Below, in pieces: positions 28,744 to 48,795 of a DNA stretch of 64,000 bases. Where the stretch lies: contig NC_086097.1 in assembly GCF_963921235.1 (NCBI RefSeq), positions 1,364,001-1,428,000 on the forward strand, read 5' to 3'. The stretch comes from Mobula hypostoma (taxonomy: Eukaryota). Position numbers and translations under genes: made by a program. Position 1 is the first letter of the stretch, and every line of letters starts with the position of its first letter. The notes below the pieces were generated by a model, which was given only the letters and a program-made list of their open reading frames with translations, ran no database searches and was not told where the DNA came from.

Positions 28744-29672
28744 TGTACGGGGTCTTTCTTTTTGTTAGAGTTAAAATGGCGACTTTGTTATGTTAATCTG
28801 GGAATGCGGCTTTGTTGTGTTAAACGTTGAAGAAGTTTGCGCTAGCAGTTTGCTTTACTTTAAAATGAGATAGCAGCATTCTATTAGCCAATGGGTGGTT
28901 ATGTATCGTTTTGTTTCCGGATACCATGCTGTATGATATGACTGTAGCTGGAGTTTTGGCGGGGAGTCGGAGGTGAGACGAGGAGGACGGTGGACGGGGT
29001 GTCGGAGGAGAGACGGGGAGGACGGAGGAGAGACGGGGAGGACTGCGGACAGGGGTTTTTGGGGGGGGGGAGTCGGAGGAGAGACGGGGAGGACGGTGGA
29101 CGGGGTTTTTGACGGGGAGTCGGAGAAGAGACGGGGAGGACGGAGGAGAGACGGGGAGTCAGGGGAGAGACGGGGAGTCGGAGGAGAGACGGGGAGGACG
29201 GTGGACGGGGTTTTTGACGGGGAGTCGGAGGAGAGACGGGGAGGATGGAGGAGAGATGGGGAGGACGGTGGATGGGGTTTTTGGTGGGGAGTCGGAGGAG
29301 AGACGGGGAGGACGGTGGACGTGCGGAGAGGCTCGGGTCGATCACTCCGGGTGGTCCCGAGCCCTGAGTCGACAGGATCCAGGTGGTCGCCTGGAATCAA
29401 TTGAGCTCCAACGGTTGCGCACGAAGAACTTGGACTTTGATAAGTGTTGGCGCCTTTTTTTCATTACTTTCCTCTCTGTATCAAATCCATATTAATGTCA
29501 TAGAATTAGTAATATCTATAAAGTGTATTTGTTAAAATTTACTGGGTGTGCTGGCTGATGATTGATGTTTGGGATTGATTCGGGCTGCGACTGACCCTGA
29601 GGGGAGCGTTGAAGCAGGTGCTGGGCAGGATTTCCCCTAGACATACACGAGCCAATATAACAGAACGTTACA
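28744..29672. mobile_element. Solo LTR (929 bp)
   Basis: TG...CA ends (tgtacg...cgttaca) and a 4-bp TSD gtag/gtaa. Removing it restores the Rex1 sequence cctgatggtaacagtgagaaaagggc. Confidence 0.8.
28960..29321. repeat. G-rich modular tandem repeat inside the solo LTR
   Basis: Shuffled modules ggggagtcggaggagagac, ggggaggacggtggac and ggggtttttgac. Confidence 0.95.
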
Positions 29673-30154
29673 GTAACAGTGAGAAAAGGGCATGCCCTGG
29701 GTGCTGGGGATCCTTAATAATGGACGCTGCCTTTCTGAAACACCGCTCCTTAGTATCTTGTATGCTGGTACCCAAGATGGAGCCGAAAAATTTACGTCCC
29801 TCTGCAGCTTCTTCTGGTCCTGTGCAGTAGCCCCTCCATACCAGACAGTGATACAGCCTGTCAGAATGTACTCCTCAGTACAACTATAGAAGTTTTTGAG
29901 TGTATTTGTTGACATACCAAATCTCTTCAAACTCCTAATAAAGTATAGTCACTGTCTTGCCTGTTTTGTAGCTGCATTGATATGTTGGAACCAGGTTAGG
30001 TCGTTAGCGATCTTGACACCCAGGAACTGTTCACTCTCTCCTCTTCTGATCCCTCTGTGAGGATTGGTATGTGTTCCTTCGTCTTACCCTTCTTGAAGTC
30101 CACAATCAGCTCTTTCGTTTTACTGACGTTGAGTGCCAGGTTGTTGCTGTGACA

Positions 30155-31015
30155 TGTTACGAGAATACACATAAAATTAAGATGTTTGCTGGCCTGGGCT
30201 AGCATCAGTGGCATCAGCAGTTGGTCTGCCACCTGCCCTCAGGGGAAGGAGAGATAAGGAACAATGGAGCAGCGTCTGGAGATGTGTAATGAAGGGATGT
30301 GGGAGAGAGAGCTGTCTGGAGCGGCTCCCCCCTTTGAACCCTGAACTGTTTGAAGTGATGGACAGGCGATACCCCAGCAGGGGGATAAAAAGGGACAGGT
30401 TCGCTAAGACAGGGACACATGCCACCCGAGGTAACGAGACCCTGGAAGCGGTGCGCCTCTCACGAGTGGATGAGAAGTACCAGACAACGACAAGGGTGGA
30501 AAGGTACGATCAGCGGGAACCCGGTGTGTGTCCGCCCTTGCCTGGGTGCCGGGTTCACTGCAGAGGATCGACCGCATCTGGAGGAGGGGTCACAGTCGGT
30601 GACCTCAGGTGACATCACCAAGGACCCGCCCAAAAGTTGCTCGTGAGCAATCTCGCTGGTCCGTGAGTGAAGCTGTGCTGAATGATGAGTTGTTCCTGTT
30701 CTCTCTGTCTCTCTTCCCCCACCTTGTCCATCGCCATGGCAACGATTACTGCGAACTGAACTACTAACTGGACTGAACTTTGAGTCATTTTGAAATTGGT
30801 CATTTACCTCTAGACAACGATAGAGCTTGATTGATGCTGTTATCTTAATTCTGTGCACATGTGTGGTTATCATTGTTGAATTGTTGCATTTATTATCCTT
30901 TCGATTACTGTGTTGCTTGTTTCTTTAATAAAACTTTCTTAGTTCTAGTACTCCAGACTCCAACTGAGTGATCCATTTCTGCTGGTTTGGCAACCCAGTT
31001 ACGGGGTACGTAACA
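30155..31015 (+). repeat. 5' LTR
   Basis: Direct repeat of 34218-35078. AATAAA at 30927-30932. Confidence 0.96.
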
Positions 31016-31019
31016 TAAG

Positions 31020-31038
31020 TGGGGTTCTCGTCCGCGAT
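31020..31038 (+). promoter_or_regulatory. Primer-binding site, tRNA-Pro-like (imperfect)
   Basis: tggggttctcgtccgcgat, 4 nt after the LTR, versus canonical TGGGGGCTCGTCCGGGAT. Confidence 0.75.
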
Positions 31039-31114
31039 TTTGAACGCTAAATTTGGGACGGAGTAAATTGATTGGGTTAAAATTCCCGAAAGAAAGAAAA
31101 GACAAACAGCAGAA

Positions 31115-33853
31115 ATGGAGGTTGAGGAATTTATAAAGGCGCCGACCTTGGAGGCATTAGAGGATGCCAGGAAATCGGAATTGATAGCCGTGGCCAAACG
31201 GTTGAATCTTGCTAAGGTGAAGTCGACAATGAGGAGAGAGGAGATACACAGAGCTATTGTAGAGCACTATGTATCTAAAGGTGTGTTTCCCCAAGGTGAG
31301 CTGGGGGTGGTGTCTGTTGAAAAACCTGCTGGAGACGCAGTACAGGTACAGCTTGAAAAACTGAGACTCGAGCACGAGTTCCGGGTACGGCAGTTAGAAC
31401 ACGAAGAGAAGCAGTTAGAAAGGCAGGAGAGAGAGTTAGAAAGGCGGGAGAGAGAGAAAGAGTTAGAAAGGCGGGAGAGAGAGAAAGAGTTAGAAAGGCG
31501 GGAGAGAGAGAAAGAGGTAGAAAGGCAAGAGAGAGAAAGACAGTTGGAGAGAGAAGAGAGAGAGAGGGACAGACAGTTGGAGAGAGAGGAGAAACAGAGG
31601 GAAAGGGAATTTGAGCTGGAGAAGTTAAAGATAAGGGCCGAGCAGGGGCTCGTGCCGAACCAAGGTAGAGGGTTCCGGGCGACCCAGGAGGTAAGGCTGG
31701 TTCCCCCTTTTGACGATACCGACGTGGATCGGTACTTTCTCCACTTCGAAAAGGTGGGAAGTCAGGAATGGCCGAGGGATAAGTGGGTTGTTTTACTTCA
31801 GAGTGTACTGAAAGGGAAGGCCCAAGAAGCTTACTCCGCTTTATCCGCGGAAGATGCCCAGAAGTATGAGGTGGTGAAGGAGGCCATCCTCAGGATTTAT
31901 GAGTTGGTCCCGGAGGCATACCGGCAGAGGTTCCGGAATGCGAGGAAGCAGTGGGACCGCACGTATTTGGAGTTTGCTCGTGAGATGCAAACATATTGTG
32001 AGCGTTGGTGCACCTCGAAAGGGGTAGAGGGGGATTATGACAGACTGCTGCAGCTGATTCTGATTGAGCAGTTTAAAGGTTGTGTCCCTGAGGGTATGAG
32101 ACCCTACCTCGATGAGAAAGAGGCAGCCACGTTAGCCGCAACTGCTAAGTTAGCGGATGAGTATGCGTTGACGCATAAAATGAAGTTTGCCCCGAGTAAA
32201 GGCTACCAGAAGGGTAGTCAGGACGGCGGGGAGAGTCCGCCGGAAAAGTCAGAAAGTAAGCCGGGGACTAGTGAAAAGGATAAGGTAGACCGGGAGCAGT
32301 CTGGTAGGAAGTCTCCTGGGGTCGTCTGTTATAATTGTGGGAAAGTCGGACACTTTGCGTCCAGGTGCTTTGCCCCAAGAAAGGAGACGGGGAAAGGAAA
32401 AGCGGAAATTTTGAATGGCTGTATCGAGCTGTTAAGCGAACCGCTAGGGAAGGACAGGTCTGAAAAAGTCCAGGAAGGGCGCGAGAGGTTTATCTCGGCC
32501 GGACTGGTGTCAGTGAAGGAGAGGTTAAAACCAGTTCCAGTGCGGATCTGGAGAGACACGGGAGCGTGTCAGTCACTAATACTGAAGAGTGTATTAGAGT
32601 TTAGCTCAGAGACCCAGACTGGGGAGGTAGAGGTCAAAGGTGTTGGGGAAGGGACAGAGTCAGTCCCTTTGCACCAGATACACTTACAGAGCAACCTGGT
32701 CTCTGGAGTAGTCACGATCGGGGTGAGGTCCGAATTACCGATGAAAGACGTGGAGGTCTTGCTCGGTAATGGCATCGCCGGAGGAATCGTGTTCCCAGTC
32801 GTGAGATTGACGGGTCAGCCTGCCAGCATGGAGGCCCCGCCCGCGATGGTGAATTTGGCTGAAACATTTCTGCCAACCTTGTATGAGACAGGGTGTAGTG
32901 AGATAAGAGGTAGTGAGGGAGCTGGGACAGACGTAGCAGTAGCCAGGAAAGAATTTGTGCAGACGCAGGAGCGAGACGAGGGGCTGATGGTTTTGGCAGA
33001 GACCGCTCTCTCTGACACAGCCTTGACAAGCTATTGTGCGGAGGAGGAAGTGCTAAGGAAGAAAGGGAAATCAAGTACAGTACCCGCAGATGAGGAATGG
33101 GGGGTGGTGCAAAAGAGTTATGGGGATGAGGTTTTTAACATGGCCCACGAGGTACCCCCCGGTGGACATTTTGCGGTGCTGGAGGAAACAGTTGGTGGAA
33201 TCATGAAAGAGATTTACCGGCTGCCCAGGGGGAAAAATGTTATTGATCATGACCGACGCGAACTGAGACGGTCACCGGCTTTTGATATGCTAACAAACCT
33301 AGTCGGTGTTAGCGTGGAAATCAATGAAGCTAGGGGCCCCCTGATAAGAGAAAAAAACCATTTTGAAAAGATTAGGATGGGATCGGTCAGATGGGAGAAG
33401 GCTATTGTTTTGGCCAGGTCTACTGATAAGGTCTCTCCCTTAATCCCCGAACAAAGCGAATCTTTAGAAGGAGTAATTAAACGACTCGCACCTATGTGTT
33501 TGATTGTCCCGAGGAAATGCAAAGAACTGGGACGTTGGGTGATTGTGGTTACAATAGGGCAGCCAAGTAAACAACACCCATATTTTTCGGGTAATTCAGT
33601 GACTAAAGGGCTGATGAACACAGAGGTGTGTATTGGCAATTTAACACGGCTGTCTGAAGCCAGTTTGATAGTGAACCTTGAAAAAAATGAATTCGGCCAC
33701 ACGAGGGTCACTTACCTGGGAATTGTGGTGACACAGGGGCAGCTGCCAGTGATGCAAGCTACAGTGCAGGCTATCGCTGACCTCCCAACCCCGACAGACA
33801 AGAGGGCCCTCAGAAGGCTTTTGGAGATGGTGGGGTACTGCAGGAAGTTTTGA
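31115..33853 (+). CDS. Gag-protease polyprotein with vestigial integrase/RT (912 aa)
   Basis: Coiled coil (ELERREREK)n, SCAN-related capsid (PEAYRQRFR...LILIEQF...LADEY), CCHC knuckle CYNCGKVGHFASRC, protease RDTGA, IN remnant AHEVPPGGH, RT remnants KQHPY and VTYLG...GYCRKF. Confidence 0.92.
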   Translation: MEVEEFIKAPTLEALEDARKSELIAVAKRLNLAKVKSTMRREEIHRAIVEHYVSKGVFPQGELGVVSVEKPAGDAVQVQLEKLRLEHEFRVRQLEHEEKQLERQERELERREREKELERREREKELERREREKEVERQERERQLEREERERDRQLEREEKQREREFELEKLKIRAEQGLVPNQGRGFRATQEVRLVPPFDDTDVDRYFLHFEKVGSQEWPRDKWVVLLQSVLKGKAQEAYSALSAEDAQKYEVVKEAILRIYELVPEAYRQRFRNARKQWDRTYLEFAREMQTYCERWCTSKGVEGDYDRLLQLILIEQFKGCVPEGMRPYLDEKEAATLAATAKLADEYALTHKMKFAPSKGYQKGSQDGGESPPEKSESKPGTSEKDKVDREQSGRKSPGVVCYNCGKVGHFASRCFAPRKETGKGKAEILNGCIELLSEPLGKDRSEKVQEGRERFISAGLVSVKERLKPVPVRIWRDTGACQSLILKSVLEFSSETQTGEVEVKGVGEGTESVPLHQIHLQSNLVSGVVTIGVRSELPMKDVEVLLGNGIAGGIVFPVVRLTGQPASMEAPPAMVNLAETFLPTLYETGCSEIRGSEGAGTDVAVARKEFVQTQERDEGLMVLAETALSDTALTSYCAEEEVLRKKGKSSTVPADEEWGVVQKSYGDEVFNMAHEVPPGGHFAVLEETVGGIMKEIYRLPRGKNVIDHDRRELRRSPAFDMLTNLVGVSVEINEARGPLIREKNHFEKIRMGSVRWEKAIVLARSTDKVSPLIPEQSESLEGVIKRLAPMCLIVPRKCKELGRWVIVVTIGQPSKQHPYFSGNSVTKGLMNTEVCIGNLTRLSEASLIVNLEKNEFGHTRVTYLGIVVTQGQLPVMQATVQAIADLPTPTDKRALRRLLEMVGYCRKF

Positions 33854-34205
33854 AATAACTCTGCGGTCAATACCCGTCCCCCTCCTACTAAGCCCTTGCG
33901 AGAGAAAACTGAGTCGGAATGGGACAACCCTTGTTATTGTGGTCCGGGACAAAACCAAATGAGAGGTTACATTGGTCGCAATTCATCAGTGTTTTTGGCC
34001 ACTATGAAGTTTGCTGAGTTGGAGCCTGGTCTAAGGGATTATTAATAACACGTGTAAAAGGAACAGAAAATGTGATGACTGTCTGTCAAGGTGTTGACAG
34101 CTTCAAATTCTCTGTATTAGCTAAATAACTGTTAAAGATGTATATTGTGTATGTATCAGATAATGTAGTCATGTTTGTAATTTTTACCTCCCGGTAAAAA
34201 TCCTT

Positions 34206-34217
34206 AAAGGGGGAAAG
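34206..34217 (+). promoter_or_regulatory. Polypurine tract
   Basis: aaagggggaaag directly before the 3' LTR. Confidence 0.85.
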
Positions 34218-35078
34218 TGTTACGAGAATACACATAAAATTAAGATGTTTGCTGGCCTGGGCTAGCATCAGTGGCATCAGCAGTTGGTCTGCCACCTGCC
34301 CTCAGGGGAAGGAGAGATAAGGAACAATGGAGCAGCGTCTGGAGATGTGTAATGAAGGGATGTGGGAGAGAGAGCTGTCTGGAGCGGCTCCCCCCTTTGA
34401 ACCCTGAACTGTTTGAAGTGATGGACAGGCGATACCCCAGCAGGGGGATAAAAAGGGACAGGTTCGCTAAGACAGGGACACACGCCACCCGAGGTAACGA
34501 GACCCTGGAAGCGGTGCGCCTCTCACGAGTGGATGAGAAGTACCAGACAACGACAAGGGTGGAAAGGTACGATCAGCGGGAACCCGGTGTGTGTCCGCCC
34601 TTGCCTGGGTGCCGGGTTCACTGCAGAGGATCGACCGCATCTGGAGGAGGGGTCACAGTCGGTGACCTCAGGTGACATCACCAAGGACCCGCCCAAAAGT
34701 TGCTCGTGAGCAATCTCGCTGGTCTGTGAGTGAAGCTGTGCTGAATGATGAGTTGTTCCTGTTCTCTCTGTCTCTCTTCCCCCACCTTGTCCATCGCCAT
34801 GGCAACGATTACTGCGAACTGAACTACTAACTGGACTGAACTTTGAGTCATTTTGAAATTGGTCATTTACCCCTAGACAACGATAGAGCTTGATTGATGC
34901 TGTTATCTTAATTCTGTGCACATGTGTGGTTATCATTGTTGAATTGTTGCATTTATTATCCTTTCGATTACTGTGTTGCTTGTTTCTTTAATAAAACTTT
35001 CTTAGTTCTAATACTCCAGACTCCAACTGAGTGATCCATTTCTGCTGGTTTGGCAACCCAGTTACGGGGTACGTAACA
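34218..35078 (+). repeat. 3' LTR
   Basis: Four transitions relative to the 5' LTR seen by eye. Confidence 0.96.
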
Positions 35079-35442
35079 GACACCACTCCACTAGTTGGCA
35101 TATCTCACTCCTGTACGCCCTCTTCTCACCACCTGAGATTCTACCAACAATGGTTGTATCATCAGCAAATATATAGATGGTATTTGAGTTATGCCTAGCC
35201 ACACAGTCATGTGTATAGAGAGAGTAGAGCAGTGGGCTAAGCACACACCCCTGAGGTGCGCCAGTGTTGATCATCAGCGAGGAGGATATGTTGTCACCAA
35301 CCCACACAGATTGTGGTCTTCCGGTTAGGAAGTCAAGGATCCAATTACAGAGGCCCAGGTTCTGTAACTTCTCAATCAATTTGTGGGAATGATTTATATT
35401 AAATGCTGAGCTATAGTTGATGAGCAGCATCCTGACACAGGT

Positions 35443-37778: not shown

Positions 37779-38622
37779 ACTAAAGAAAAGCAGGCTAAGG
37801 GACACAAGGCATTGAAGGAGAGGTTTACCCTAATGCCTATTATTAACACCACTGGTGATGCTGTCCTTAAGCCTCTACTAGTGTACCATTCAGAAGGCAT
37901 TGATAAGAATACACTTCCTGTGGTGTTCCGTTCACATCCAAGCAGTTGGAATACCCAAAGGATTTCTTCTGAGTACATGAGTGAGTACGTTAGTCCTTTT
38001 GTTGAAAAATACTGTAGAGAAAATAACCTGGATAATAGGTGTCTCGTGATTGTTGATAATTATGCTGCTCATCCGCCTGCCATTACCGAGTATGGCGGTA
38101 ACATTCGTGTTGCGTTCTTACCGCCGAATACGACATCGTTGCTGTAGCCGTGTGACCAAGGCCTAATAGCCACAATTAAGGCTTACTATATGCAAAATGT
38201 GACGCATTTTATTGTAATTGCCATTGACGGAGAGGGCAACTCCAAAGTGTCTTTGCGAGAGATCTGGAAAGAATACAATATAAAATTGGCAATTCCCAAC
38301 ATTGGAGATGCTCTCAACAGGCTAACAGTCTCGACGAGAAATGGCGTTTGGAGGAAAATGTGTCCCGAAGCAGTGAACGATTTTAAAGGCTTCGAACCAA
38401 CAACAATAAATACGGCAATAGTGACTTTGGCTAAGGAGGCTGGGTTTCTGGAAGTTGGCAAAGATGATGTTGAAAAGGGTTTGGCATCCCATGATCAAGA
38501 ACTGACAGATGAAGAGCTGATGCAATTGCAAGAAGAAAGGATACGAATTGAAACCGAATGCAGTAGCGAATGGCCTGAAAGTGAAGTTGTCCAGGAACTG
38601 AACCATATAATATAACCATATA

Positions 38623-40201: not shown

Positions 40202-41692
40202 TAACAATTACAGCACGGAAACAGGCCATCTAGGCCCTTCTAGTCTGTGCCGAACGCTTTCTCTCACCTCGTCACCGACCTGCACTCAGCCCATAACCCT
40301 CCATTCCTTTCCTGTCCATATAGCTATCCAATTTTACTTTAAGTGACAGTATCAAACCTGCCTCTACCACTTCTTCTGGAAGCTCATTCCACACAGCCAC
40401 CACTCTCTGAGTAAAGAAGTTCCCCCTCATGTTACCCCTAAACTTTTGCCCCCTAACTCTCAACTCATGTCCACTTGTTTGAATCTCCCCCACTCTCAAT
40501 GGAAAAAGCCTATCCACGTCAACTCTATCTATCTCCCTCATAATTTTAAATACCTCTATTAAGTCCCCCCTCAACCTTCTACGCTCCAAAGAATAAAGAC
40601 CCAACTTGTTCAACCTTTCCCTGTAACTTAGGTGCTGAAATCCAGGTAACATTCTAGTAAATCTTCTCTGTACTCTCTCTATTTTGTTGACATCATTCCT
40701 ATAATTCGGTGACCAGAACTGTACACAATACTCCAAATTTGGCCTTACCAGTGCCTTGTACAATTTTAACATTACATCCCAACTCCTATACTCAATGCTC
40801 TGATTTATAAAGACCAGCAAGCCAAAAGCTTTCTTCACCACCCTATCCACATGAGATTCCACCTTCAGGGAACTATGCACCATTATTCCTAGATCCCTCT
40901 GTCCTACTGCATTCTTCTATGCTCTACTATTTACCATGTATGTCCTATTTTGATTAGTCCTACCAAAATGTAGCACCTCACATTTATCAGCATTAAACTC
41001 CATCTGCCATCTTTCAGCACCTCTTCTAACTGGCCTAAATCTCTCTGCAAGTTTTGAAAACCTTGAAGAACGTGAAGCACTTTTGTGAGATTTTCGCTAC
41101 AATTGACAGTGCTGCAATGATTGCAGAAAAGTATGACTTTAATTTTGAAAGGGCACGTAGGTTTAGGGCACGTTTTCAGGATGCTTTTAGTGCCTACAAA
41201 GAACTGTATGATAGAAAAATGCACGAGGCTATCAGTCACGCATACTGTCATATTTGAAGCCTTCCACATCGGCCACAGCAGACGAACCTCGGCCTTTGAC
41301 ATTGAGGCAGACAGACATAGAAGAAGGTGTAGACGTACCTCCCACCTCCCCAACCTCCGACGCCTCAGCCTGACACACCATCATCAGTGTGCTCGTAGTC
41401 TTCCCGATTCCGGTAAGTGATACTACACTATACATACATTATTTCTACTTTATATAGGCTGTGTATTTATCATATCATTCCTGCTTTTACTATATGTTAG
41501 TGTTATTTTAAGTTTTGTGTGTTATTTGGTATGATTTGGTAGGTTATTACGCGAACAACTCACAAATTTTTCCCATATAAATAAATGGTAATTGCTTCTT
41601 CACTTTATGACATTCCGGCTTACGAAAGGTTTCATAGGAATGCTCTACCTTCGGATAGCGGGGGAAACCTGTTAAGGTAGAAATTGATAGGT

Positions 41693-43372
41693 AGACACCT
41701 TCTATGCACGTTTTGAAAAGGAGAACACAACTGCGGCTGTGAAGATCCCTGCTGCACCTGATGACCCTGTGATCTCTGTCTCAGAGGCCGATGTTAGACT
41801 GACTTTAAAGAGAGTGAACCCTTGTAAGGCAGTAGGTCCTGATGGAGCACCTGGTAAGGCTCTGAAAATCTGTGCCAACCAATTAGCGGGAGTATTCAAG
41901 GACATTTTCAACCTCTCACTGCTAGGGGTAGAAGTTCCCACTTGCTTCAAAAAGGCAACAATTATACCAGTGCCAAAGAAGAATAATCTGAGCTGCCTTA
42001 ATGACTATCGCCCAGTAGCACTCACATCGACAGTGATGAAATGCTTTGACAGGTTGGTCATGACTAGACTGAACTGCTGCCTCAGCAAGGACCTGGACCC
42101 ATTGCAATTTGCCTATCGTCACAATTGGTCAACGGCAGATGCAATCTCCACCGTTCTTCACACGGCTTTAGACCACCTGGACAACACAAACGCCTACGTC
42201 AGGATGCTGTTTATGGACTATAGCTCAATATTTAATACCATCATTCCCATAATCTTGATTGAGAAGTTGCAGAACCTAGGCCTCTGTAATTGGATCTTCG
42301 ACTTCCGAATCAGAAGACCACAGTCTGTGCAGATTGGTGATGACATCTCCCCGCTGACGATCAACACTGGCGCACCTCAGGGGTGTGTGCTTAGCCCACT
42401 ACATGACTCTCTCTACACCCATGACTGTGTGGCTAAGCATAGCTCAAATACCACCTACAAATTTGCTGTTGATACAACCATCGTTGGTGGAATGTCAGGT
42501 GATGACGAGAGGGCGTACAGGAGTGAGATATGCCAACTAGTGGAGTGGTGCCGCAGCAACAACCTGGCACTCAACATCAGTCAGACGAAAGAGCTGATTG
42601 TGGACTTCAGGAAGGGTAAGACGAAGGAACACATACCAATCCTCACAGAGGGATCAGAAGAGGAGAGAGTGAGCAGTTTCAAGTTCCTGGACATCAAGAT
42701 CTCTGAGGATCTAACCTGGTCCCAACATATTGATGTAGTCATAAAGAAGGCAAGACAGCGGCTACACTTGATTAGGAGTTTGAAGAGATTTGGCATGTTA
42801 ACAAATATACTCAAAAACTTCTATAGTTGTATTCTGACAGGCTGCATCACTGTCTGGTATGGAGGGGCTACTGCACAGGACTGAAAGAAGCTGCAGAAGG
42901 TTATAAATCTAGTCAACTCCATCTTGGGCACTAGCCTACAAAGTACCCAGGACATTTTTTAGGGAGCAGTGTATCAGAAAGGCAGCATCCATTATTAAGG
43001 ACCTCCAGCACCAGGACATGCCCTTTTCTCACTGTTACCATCAGGTAGGAGATACAGAAGCCTGAAGGCACACACTCAGCGATTCAGGAACAGCTTCTTC
43101 CCCTCTGTTATCTGATTCCTAAATGGACATTGAAGCTTCAGACACTACCTCACTATTTTTAATATACAGTATTTCTGTTTTTGCACATTTTTCAAAAATC
43201 TATTCAATATACATAATTGATTTACTTGTTTATTTATTATGTTTTATTTTATTTATTTATTATTATTATTTCTCTCTCTGCTAGATTATGTATTGCATTG
43301 AACTGCAGCCGCTAAGTTAACAAATTTCACATCACATGCCAGTGATAATAAAACTGATTCTGATTCTGATTC
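41693..43372 (+). mobile_element. 5'-truncated Rex1/Babar LINE with a 381-aa RT ORF (41739-42884)
   Basis: [22 protein letters not shown]; catalytic FADD changed to FAVD. (GATTCT)n tail. Inserted in a CR1 tail that resumes at 43373-43510. Confidence 0.92.
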
Positions 43373-47992: not shown

Positions 47993-48795
47993 CACCTTAA
48001 CGTTTCAGGTCAAAGCTCCTTTATCAGAACTTCGCACAGAAATAAGGATGTAAGGCTCTGTTTTTAAGTACGTATAAATGGAAGGGAGAGGTCCAAGTAC
48101 ATAATGGCACCTTAGAGAATGAGATTAGGGAACCTGTCATGGGGGTTCTAGGAAATGGCTGGGAGTTAAACTGGAGTTAGGCTGGGAGTCCATTCGTCTC
48201 CCCCCATCCCTTCCCACCGATCTCCCTCCCAGCACTTACCCTTGTAAGTGGAACAAGTGCTACACATGCCCTTACACTTCCTCCCTCACCACCATTCAGG
48301 GCCCCAGACAGTCCTTCCAGGTGAGGCGACACTTCAACTGCGAGTCGGCTGGGGTGATATACTGCGTCCGGTGCTCCCGATGTAGTCTTCTATATATTGG
48401 TGAGACCCGACGCAGACTGGGAGGTTGTTTCGCTGAACACCTACGCTCTGTCCGCCAGAGAAAGCAGGATCTCCCAGTGGCCACACATTTTAATTCCACA
48501 TACCATTCCCATTCTGATATGTCTATCCACGGCCTCCTCTACTGTAAAGATGAAGCCACACTCAGGTTGGAGGAACAACACCTTATATTCCGTCTGGGTT
48601 GCCTCCAACCTGATGGCATGAACATTGACTTCTCTAACTTCCGTTAATGCCCCACCTCCCCCTCGTAACCCATCCTAATCTATTTATTTATTTCCACAAA
48701 CATGAGGAATTCTGCAGATGCTGGAAATTCAAGCAACACACATCAAAGTTGCTGGTTAACACAGCAGGCCAGGCAGCATCTCTAGGAAGAGGTGC

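Follow-up and report, generated by a model that had tools for sequence, protein, structure and literature searches.

An important question raised by the Gmr1-like LTR retrotransposon at positions 30155-35078 (4924 bp) of a window of the Mobula hypostoma contig NC_086097.1—i.e. of the whole 64-kb stretch of DNA that was analysed—is how an element that lacks most of its own pol gene came to be copied, and whether selection keeps what is left of pol in frame. A preliminary description, made from the letters alone, had portrayed a young copy with intact Gag and protease and a multiply deleted pol, mobilized in trans and selected for its open frame. The element and its insertion site are organized as follows.

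30151-30154, plus strand: left target-site duplication GACA; empty site in the second LINE copy of the window
30155-31015, plus strand: 5' LTR, 861 bp, TG...CA
31020-31046, plus strand: primer-binding-site-like (PBS-like) stretch; no Rfam match
34206-34217, plus strand: polypurine tract (PPT)
34218-35078, plus strand: 3' LTR, 861 bp
35079-35082, plus strand: right target-site duplication GACA

This architecture is as it had been described: a count confirms four differences in 861 sites between the two LTRs, all of them transitions; both LTRs start with TG and end with CA; downstream of the 5' LTR lies a PBS-like stretch, and upstream of the 3' LTR a purine tract. The target-site duplication, said to be perfect, reads GACA on both sides, and the uninterrupted target site is found in a second LINE copy of the same window (about 42198-43012, minus strand). 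The target itself is a LINE copy (29700-30154 / 35079-35436) with a Pfam RVT_1 match, presumably Rex1/Babar-like by its motifs. An insertion of the LINE type is ruled out for the element, as the LTR ends and the 4-bp duplication point to integrase.

But for a bulge and two mismatches, the PBS-like stretch resembles a sequence complementary to the 3' end of its putative primer, tRNA-Pro, and this likeness seems to extend over more than 18 nt (31016-31046). Read contigs were taken from four (X1, X9, X5, X17) of 23 listed public runs; a 311-base X5 contig across the PBS has just two differing letters, and from this contig the odd PBS looks like a family trait. Rfam has no match anywhere in the element, and ARAGORN found no tRNA in the 64-kb window. 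Each LTR contains a 143-codon stop-free frame (30181-30612 and 34244-34675) that has no Pfam match. Among the neighbours in the window are a G-rich tandem repeat (28949-29330) about 800 bp upstream of the element, an open stretch at 38148-38615 that may be a pogo/Tigger transposase piece, a 397-codon open stretch in the second, uninterrupted LINE copy (41691-43012) and an open stretch at 48129-48647, possibly a piece of a Penelope-like GIY-YIG endonuclease.

The coding part of the element consists of a single ORF, in which the pol remnant makes up 395 codons in the same frame as Gag and protease.

31115-33853, plus strand: the one ORF of this copy (P0001, 912 aa), coding for Gag, protease and the remnant of pol
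31406-31594, plus strand: charged coiled-coil region of Gag, repeated for the most part in 27-nt units whose number varies among sisters
31910-32179, plus strand: SCAN-like capsid C-terminal domain, residues 266-355 (Pfam PF02023, E 4.3e-13)
32324-32368, plus strand: CCHC zinc knuckle, residues 404-418 (Pfam PF00098, E 4.3e-6)
32495-32812, plus strand: aspartic protease, DTGA at 32555-32566 (alignment with full-length relatives)
32855-33259, plus strand: remnant of the integrase N-terminus with His 678 and His 685 but without the Cys pair (coordinates by hand)
33260-33592, plus strand: integrase C-terminal tail, linker and RT start to KQHPY
33593-33850, plus strand: RT remnant, CIGN (33629-33640) through thumb, 18-aa in-frame gap (tblastn to P0082 1145-1275, same frame)
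33851-33853, plus strand: stop codon private to this copy
33854-34045, plus strand: remainder of the ORF shared by the family, with scraps of the connection and RNase H (about 87 aa missing); family stop at 34043-34045

The 912-aa frame is indeed unbroken from 31115 to 33853, its end being set by the private stop. Pfam detects no integrase, RT or RNase H in P0001, and the exact P0001 sequence was not found in the protein collection searched. An AlphaFold model from a 10-row alignment (mean pLDDT 37.6) has the Gag coiled coil as its sole confident helix and is uninformative on every other domain.

What is missing becomes clear by comparison with P0082, a full-length sawfish polyprotein with the Pfam order SCAN, H2C2, rve, RVT_1 and RNase H, which served as reference for the deletions, their sizes being counted by hand. 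The remnants map along P0082 in the order protease, integrase, RT, RNase H. Captured host sequence in the remnant is rejected, as the remnant aligns lengthwise to the pol of relatives. The alignment bears out that the integrase keeps its two histidines and has lost the cysteine pair and the DDE core: a deletion of about 289 aa removed the Cys pair and the whole core (junction at about 33259/33260). It likewise bears out the jump in RT from KQHPY to the CIGN that stands at the YxDD position, with about 128 aa deleted after KQHPY (junction at about 33586-33592) and, after CIGN, a further 18 aa missing before the RT thumb, which is kept. Both large deletions preserve the frame, as had been claimed of all deletions, but the claim fails for the final 35 or so ancestral RNase H codons, which sit in other frames. 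The junctions join short matching motifs of the ancestral protein (comparing P0210 with P0082, Arg-Arg in integrase and Arg-Met in RT), a pattern that template switching would be expected to leave.

With its SCAN-like capsid and the order protease-integrase-RT-RNase H, the element agrees with the Gmr1-like clade of Ty3/gypsy elements, in which integrase precedes RT and which is described as abundant in fishes (bioRxiv 10.1101/2025.03.03.638093, PMC4131045), and its TG...CA LTRs, PBS, PPT and short target-site duplication are those of the clade, too. It differs from autonomous Gmr1-like elements by having no intact integrase DDE core, RT YxDD or RNase H. Without the catalytic cores of these three enzymes, which have been deleted, the element cannot move alone.

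Had the deletions arisen in this copy, they should be unique to its locus, a possibility that the preliminary description itself had raised. They are found instead at sister loci and in a M. birostris lineage that is 41% diverged. A search with the remnant returned nine proteins, all from Mobula, and their clusters added 13 more; all these sister sequences are annotated proteins and hence picked for open frames. Among 18 aligned sisters, with identities to the window copy of 91-98% for M. hypostoma and 87-92% for M. birostris proteins, the integrase junction is shared by 13/13 and the RT junction by 11/11 of those that reach the respective point, and the 13 sisters with the integrase junction sit on 12 differently sized scaffolds. 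Eight of the 18 continue beyond the stop of our copy to a common end about 62 codons further on (five of them from the first Met). Since the stop is private and these sisters read past it, the RNase H scraps, which had been placed after the stop and do lie there in this copy, belong inside the family ORF.

Individual sisters are often damaged. By eye, there are five independent frameshift cases in single copies, with P0002, P0006, P0008, P0022 and the pair P0004/P0005 ending in another frame, and P0014 ends early; nine placeable family proteins, the window copy included, are broken somewhere. P0004 and P0005 lie on different scaffolds but have in common a frameshift at about residue 873 and older 3' residues, and in gag-protease P0004 groups with the young family, a pattern of residues that suggests recombination between subfamilies. 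As the frameshift is found at both loci, a truncated form appears to have been propagated on at least one occasion, and loss of some 100 terminal codons thus did not block copying. In RefSeq, P0003, P0022, P0017 and P0023 appear as isoforms of MACC1, PPM1Lb or UBE2G2 or as trichohyalin-like, and P0011 has a foreign N-terminus; all five look like misnamed or chimeric gene models.

The age of the deletions can be read from P0210, a single 408-aa gene model of M. birostris that is known as protein only and whose residues 5-408 align in the frame of the ORF. P0210 differs from P0001 at 135/331 sites (about 41% divergence) and already carries, in frame, both large deletions as well as a 5-aa gap. 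It retains stretches of 18 aa and 7 aa that are missing from the window line, and Pfam still detects its integrase finger and RT. The trees are ladder-like, leading from a Hypanus protein via P0007 with its intact finger, P0009, P0010 and P0005 to the young family, and a fully supported node places P0210 between P0007 and the family; the capsid-protease tree was built without P0082, P0085 and P0024 (3/25 rows), and its bootstrap is not settled. As far as protein alignments and trees can tell, this shows that the integrase core and the greater part of RT were removed in an ancestor, through two deletions that kept the frame, before P0210 split off, and that the lineage went on multiplying long after this loss of enzymes. 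Decay of pol is therefore older than the insertion, as proposed: the deletions are present in the sisters and in P0210.

Copying after the loss of its own enzymes requires that a retroelement receives RT and integrase in trans, and the multiplication of this lineage after enzyme loss thus implies a need for a helper. The 120 best matches of 566 longer proteins related to P0007 include no full-length Mobula polyprotein, and the best full-length match in this set, 45% identical, is from a sawfish. This absence is weak evidence, since annotation skips most repeats. Two further Gmr1-like polyproteins, P0093 and P0106, are labelled Campylobacter and Candidatus Thiodiazotropha and are probably animal DNA in bacterial assemblies.

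How recently the copy at 30155-35078 was inserted is a separate matter. At the directly measured shark mutation rate of 7 x 10^-10 per generation (interval 1.4-14.1; PMC10587355), an LTR divergence of 0.46% corresponds to about three million generations (1.6-17 million); by eye, two of the four LTR differences are at CpG sites, and an age of three million generations would for this reason be too old. 'Young' is thus appropriate in a relative sense only: the LTRs are near-identical, but this may still mean millions of generations. In the contigs of the public runs, the rare letter at 30420 and 30809 is the one borne by the 5' LTR. Gene conversion between the LTRs, which had been named as a possible source of their identity, is not needed, because private changes are similarly dense in the LTRs (four in 1722 bp) and in the interior (at least 10 in 3202 bp).

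Since its insertion, the copy has gathered lesions of its own, so that it is probably dead. Six residues and a stop are private to it: at position 33853 within this stop (33851-33853), more than 99.9% of the contig depth in X1 and all contig depth in X9, X5 and X17 differ from the window. The six private residues include a one-codon gap in the capsid at about residue 215 and, at residue 553 (32771-32773) in the conserved protease motif LLGN-x, a Gly that this copy alone has among 230 motif-bearing proteins. The Gag-protease was therefore called intact only partly with good reason, since the SCAN-like capsid, the CCHC knuckle and the DTGA are there, but the capsid has its codon gap and the protease its Gly 553. 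Contig depth in X1 (72,693 contigs) is 0.93-1.23 million in LTR bins and 0.18-0.50 million in internal bins, figures that do not represent copy number. In run X5, which may be RNA, five contigs cover 30986-34107 with zero to three differences; their depth is even (475-565), as would be seen if a single near-identical copy were dominant.

Evolutionary rates differ between the parts of the ORF. In relative-rate tests of the family against P0007 with four outgroups, the integrase remnant shows 28-33 family changes versus 3-5 (p at most 1e-4), i.e. lineage-specific changes are up 6- to 10-fold, whereas the protease (6-7 versus 8-10) and the capsid, tested against P0195 (7-14 versus 9-15), show no significant difference; the RT part, with 11-15 versus 5-7 changes (p 0.08-0.26), is not significantly accelerated. 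The tree path from the P0007 node to the young family measures about 0.25 changes per site for capsid-protease and 0.61 for the integrase remnant. Among eight sisters, columns with a shared minor residue number 10/500 in gag-protease versus 16/331 in the remnant (p 0.025). In these protein comparisons, capsid and protease are shown to evolve at a normal slow rate, with the integrase remnant relaxed. The ratio of synonymous to nonsynonymous non-private changes points in the same direction without being significant (4:1 in gag-protease, 6:14 in the remnant; contrast p 0.12), the counts coming from 32 ORF variants among those listed in the reads, several of which rest on one contig. Identity to P0210 is uneven along the remnant (0.62, 0.50 and 0.67; p 0.04-0.23), and because of this unevenness and the non-accelerated RT part some amino-acid constraint on the remnant is possible.

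Against this background of relaxed sequence, the openness of the frame stands out. For the codons of the remnant, stops are 4.0-5.7% as frequent as missense changes, so that 5-10 stops are expected over the distance between P0001 and P0210; none is seen (chance at most 0.005). Since the split from P0210, the window line has undergone about eight indels, all in frame in the protein alignment, which conceals compensating frameshift pairs. As a neutral yardstick, 18 decayed-repeat pairs of the window have 8/57 indels in multiples of three, or 8/25 when only indels of at least 3 nt are considered, and at one third each, eight in-frame indels would occur by chance about once in several thousand; the spectrum of RT-error indels may differ from that of the genomic decay used here. 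Among the 12 read indel rows listed, all eight in the LTRs are 1-2 nt, and the four in the ORF consist of the copy's 3-nt gap (two rows) and a compensating pair. What appears to be selected in the remnant is the frame rather more than the amino-acid sequence, and this selection seems weaker near the 3' end. The earlier proposal of selection on the ORF holds in this form, and the random frameshifting of sisters, which would have spoken against it, is not what the spreading lineage shows, its line being in frame and free of stops.

The account that we consider probable is that of a long-lived non-autonomous Gmr1-like subfamily of devil rays, which would contribute its own Gag-protease in cis, depend on borrowed RT and integrase, and be under selection to keep its frame open. 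The RNA of the element would be translated into Gag-protease, which would co-assemble with this RNA and with the Gag-Pol of an intact helper supplying RT and integrase. Why the remnant would be kept open is less certain, but may be related to the single ORF of the clade having no natural stop after gag. An early stop would consequently mean shorter translation and a longer 3' UTR, and may lower RNA survival or packaging in cis; if such stops are harmful, the element could shed pol only in multiples of three. By hand, the 3' UTR measures about 0.95 kb, and with a stop after the protease it would be about 2.1 kb, a modest signal for nonsense-mediated decay (NMD). Retroviral RNA becomes subject to NMD when a long 3' UTR follows gag, and in Rous sarcoma virus (RSV) a stability element after the gag stop is needed to escape it (PMC2925335), while in the mouse IAP 1-delta-1 elements an in-frame gag-pol fusion aids retrotransposition in cis (PMC6466679, PMC7411935). 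By analogy, these cases can serve as precedents rather than as tests of the mechanism. That this Gmr1-like lineage is a long-lived half-parasite, in which selection acts on translation through dead pol and not on the encoded sequence, is a more tentative proposition, to which we would give somewhat less than an even chance.

The main rival accepts the same non-autonomous lineage and lets its protein tail work, with the RT palm-thumb or the integrase N-terminus docking to, or competing with, the helper enzymes in the particle. The RT part, not significantly accelerated, is the best kept (58-60% identity to P0082 versus 38-41% for the integrase part), and identity to P0210 along the remnant varies in the order that is seen among autonomous pairs. 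However, the integrase part is accelerated 6- to 10-fold, its zinc finger is half lost, the RT piece is cut by the 18-aa gap, a thumb-less form exists at two loci, and among the remnant variants listed 14/20 are nonsynonymous, close to the neutral share of about 70%, all of which makes a working tail rather unlikely. If, on the other hand, there were no selection on the frame at all, an open remnant would have to result from a sample picked for ORFs together with luck in a few master copies. Only annotated proteins were sampled, and nine placeable family proteins are broken somewhere, as this reading would have it; yet sampling cannot erase stops fixed on the shared stem, along which about 0.4 changes per site and about eight indels include none that breaks the frame, and the listed indels of 1-2 nt in the LTRs differ from the 3-nt gap and compensating pair in the ORF. 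We regard this reading as improbable.

Even less can be said for selection by the host, in which a Gag-protease with a dead pol tail would interfere with active Gmr1-like elements. RefSeq models exist for many loci, some of them with several isoforms or fused to host genes, and the run guessed to be RNA (X5) has its near-identical contigs at even depth, but individual copies gain stops and frameshifts once inserted, none of the loci was seen to be orthologous and conserved, and the tree is a ladder of spreading subfamilies, so that host selection appears very improbable indeed. Finally, an ordinary single element that decayed in place and later had its LTRs homogenized would explain nothing beyond the private lesions of this copy, and it is refuted by deletion junctions common to many loci and a second species and by the similar density of changes in LTRs and interior.

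In its way of working, this ray element is like IAP 1-delta-1, TR-GAG and GAG/PROT elements, yet it belongs to none of these. IAP 1-delta-1 is non-autonomous as well, with an in-frame deletion and one fusion ORF, and spreads with enzymes supplied in trans; it is, however, derived from a retrovirus, has one 1.9-kb deletion that includes part of gag and needs Gag in trans. In contrast, the ray family has whole gag and protease at the family level and a dozen or more stepwise indels, its defective line is about 41% diverged in the remnant across two species, and its close relatives are all Gmr1-like polyproteins rather than having an IAP backbone. With plant TR-GAG elements, for many of which no autonomous partner is apparent, it shares LTRs, PBS, PPT and a Gag ORF (PMC4350172, PMC8704663), and TR-GAG-type transposition has been demonstrated in Arabidopsis (PMC4350172, PMC8704663). 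LTRs, PBS, PPT, one ORF and at least two copies are all found for the ray element; but TR-GAGs are described as shorter than 4 kb (PMC4350172), compared with 4924 bp here, and by definition have no similarity to protease, integrase, RT or RNase H, whereas the ray element has a protease and pol remnants. The GAG/PROT and partly decayed POL families of sugar beet (PMC13570524) are likewise non-autonomous with a Gag ORF. The accounts of plant TR-GAG and sugar beet families that we consulted report no selection on the frame of decayed pol. LTR-mediated retrocopies (PMC5131818) are a further point of comparison, from which the ray element differs in that no captured host sequence was seen in it. 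In the openly accessible literature, we found no published account of the ray elements or of a pol decay that preserves the frame.

LTR elements that have become defective are generally seen as passive cargo. In the ray lineage, graded natural relatives record a stepwise loss of enzymes during which capsid and protease stay constrained and the leftover frame stays open. The family also matters for annotation: it yields false or chimeric gene models in Mobula, and, with its RT and integrase signatures gone, homology-based repeat tools would miss or misclassify it. The cis-translation mechanism, known mainly from mouse IAP 1-delta-1, can thus be put to the test through comparative genomics, in a gypsy family of vertebrates.
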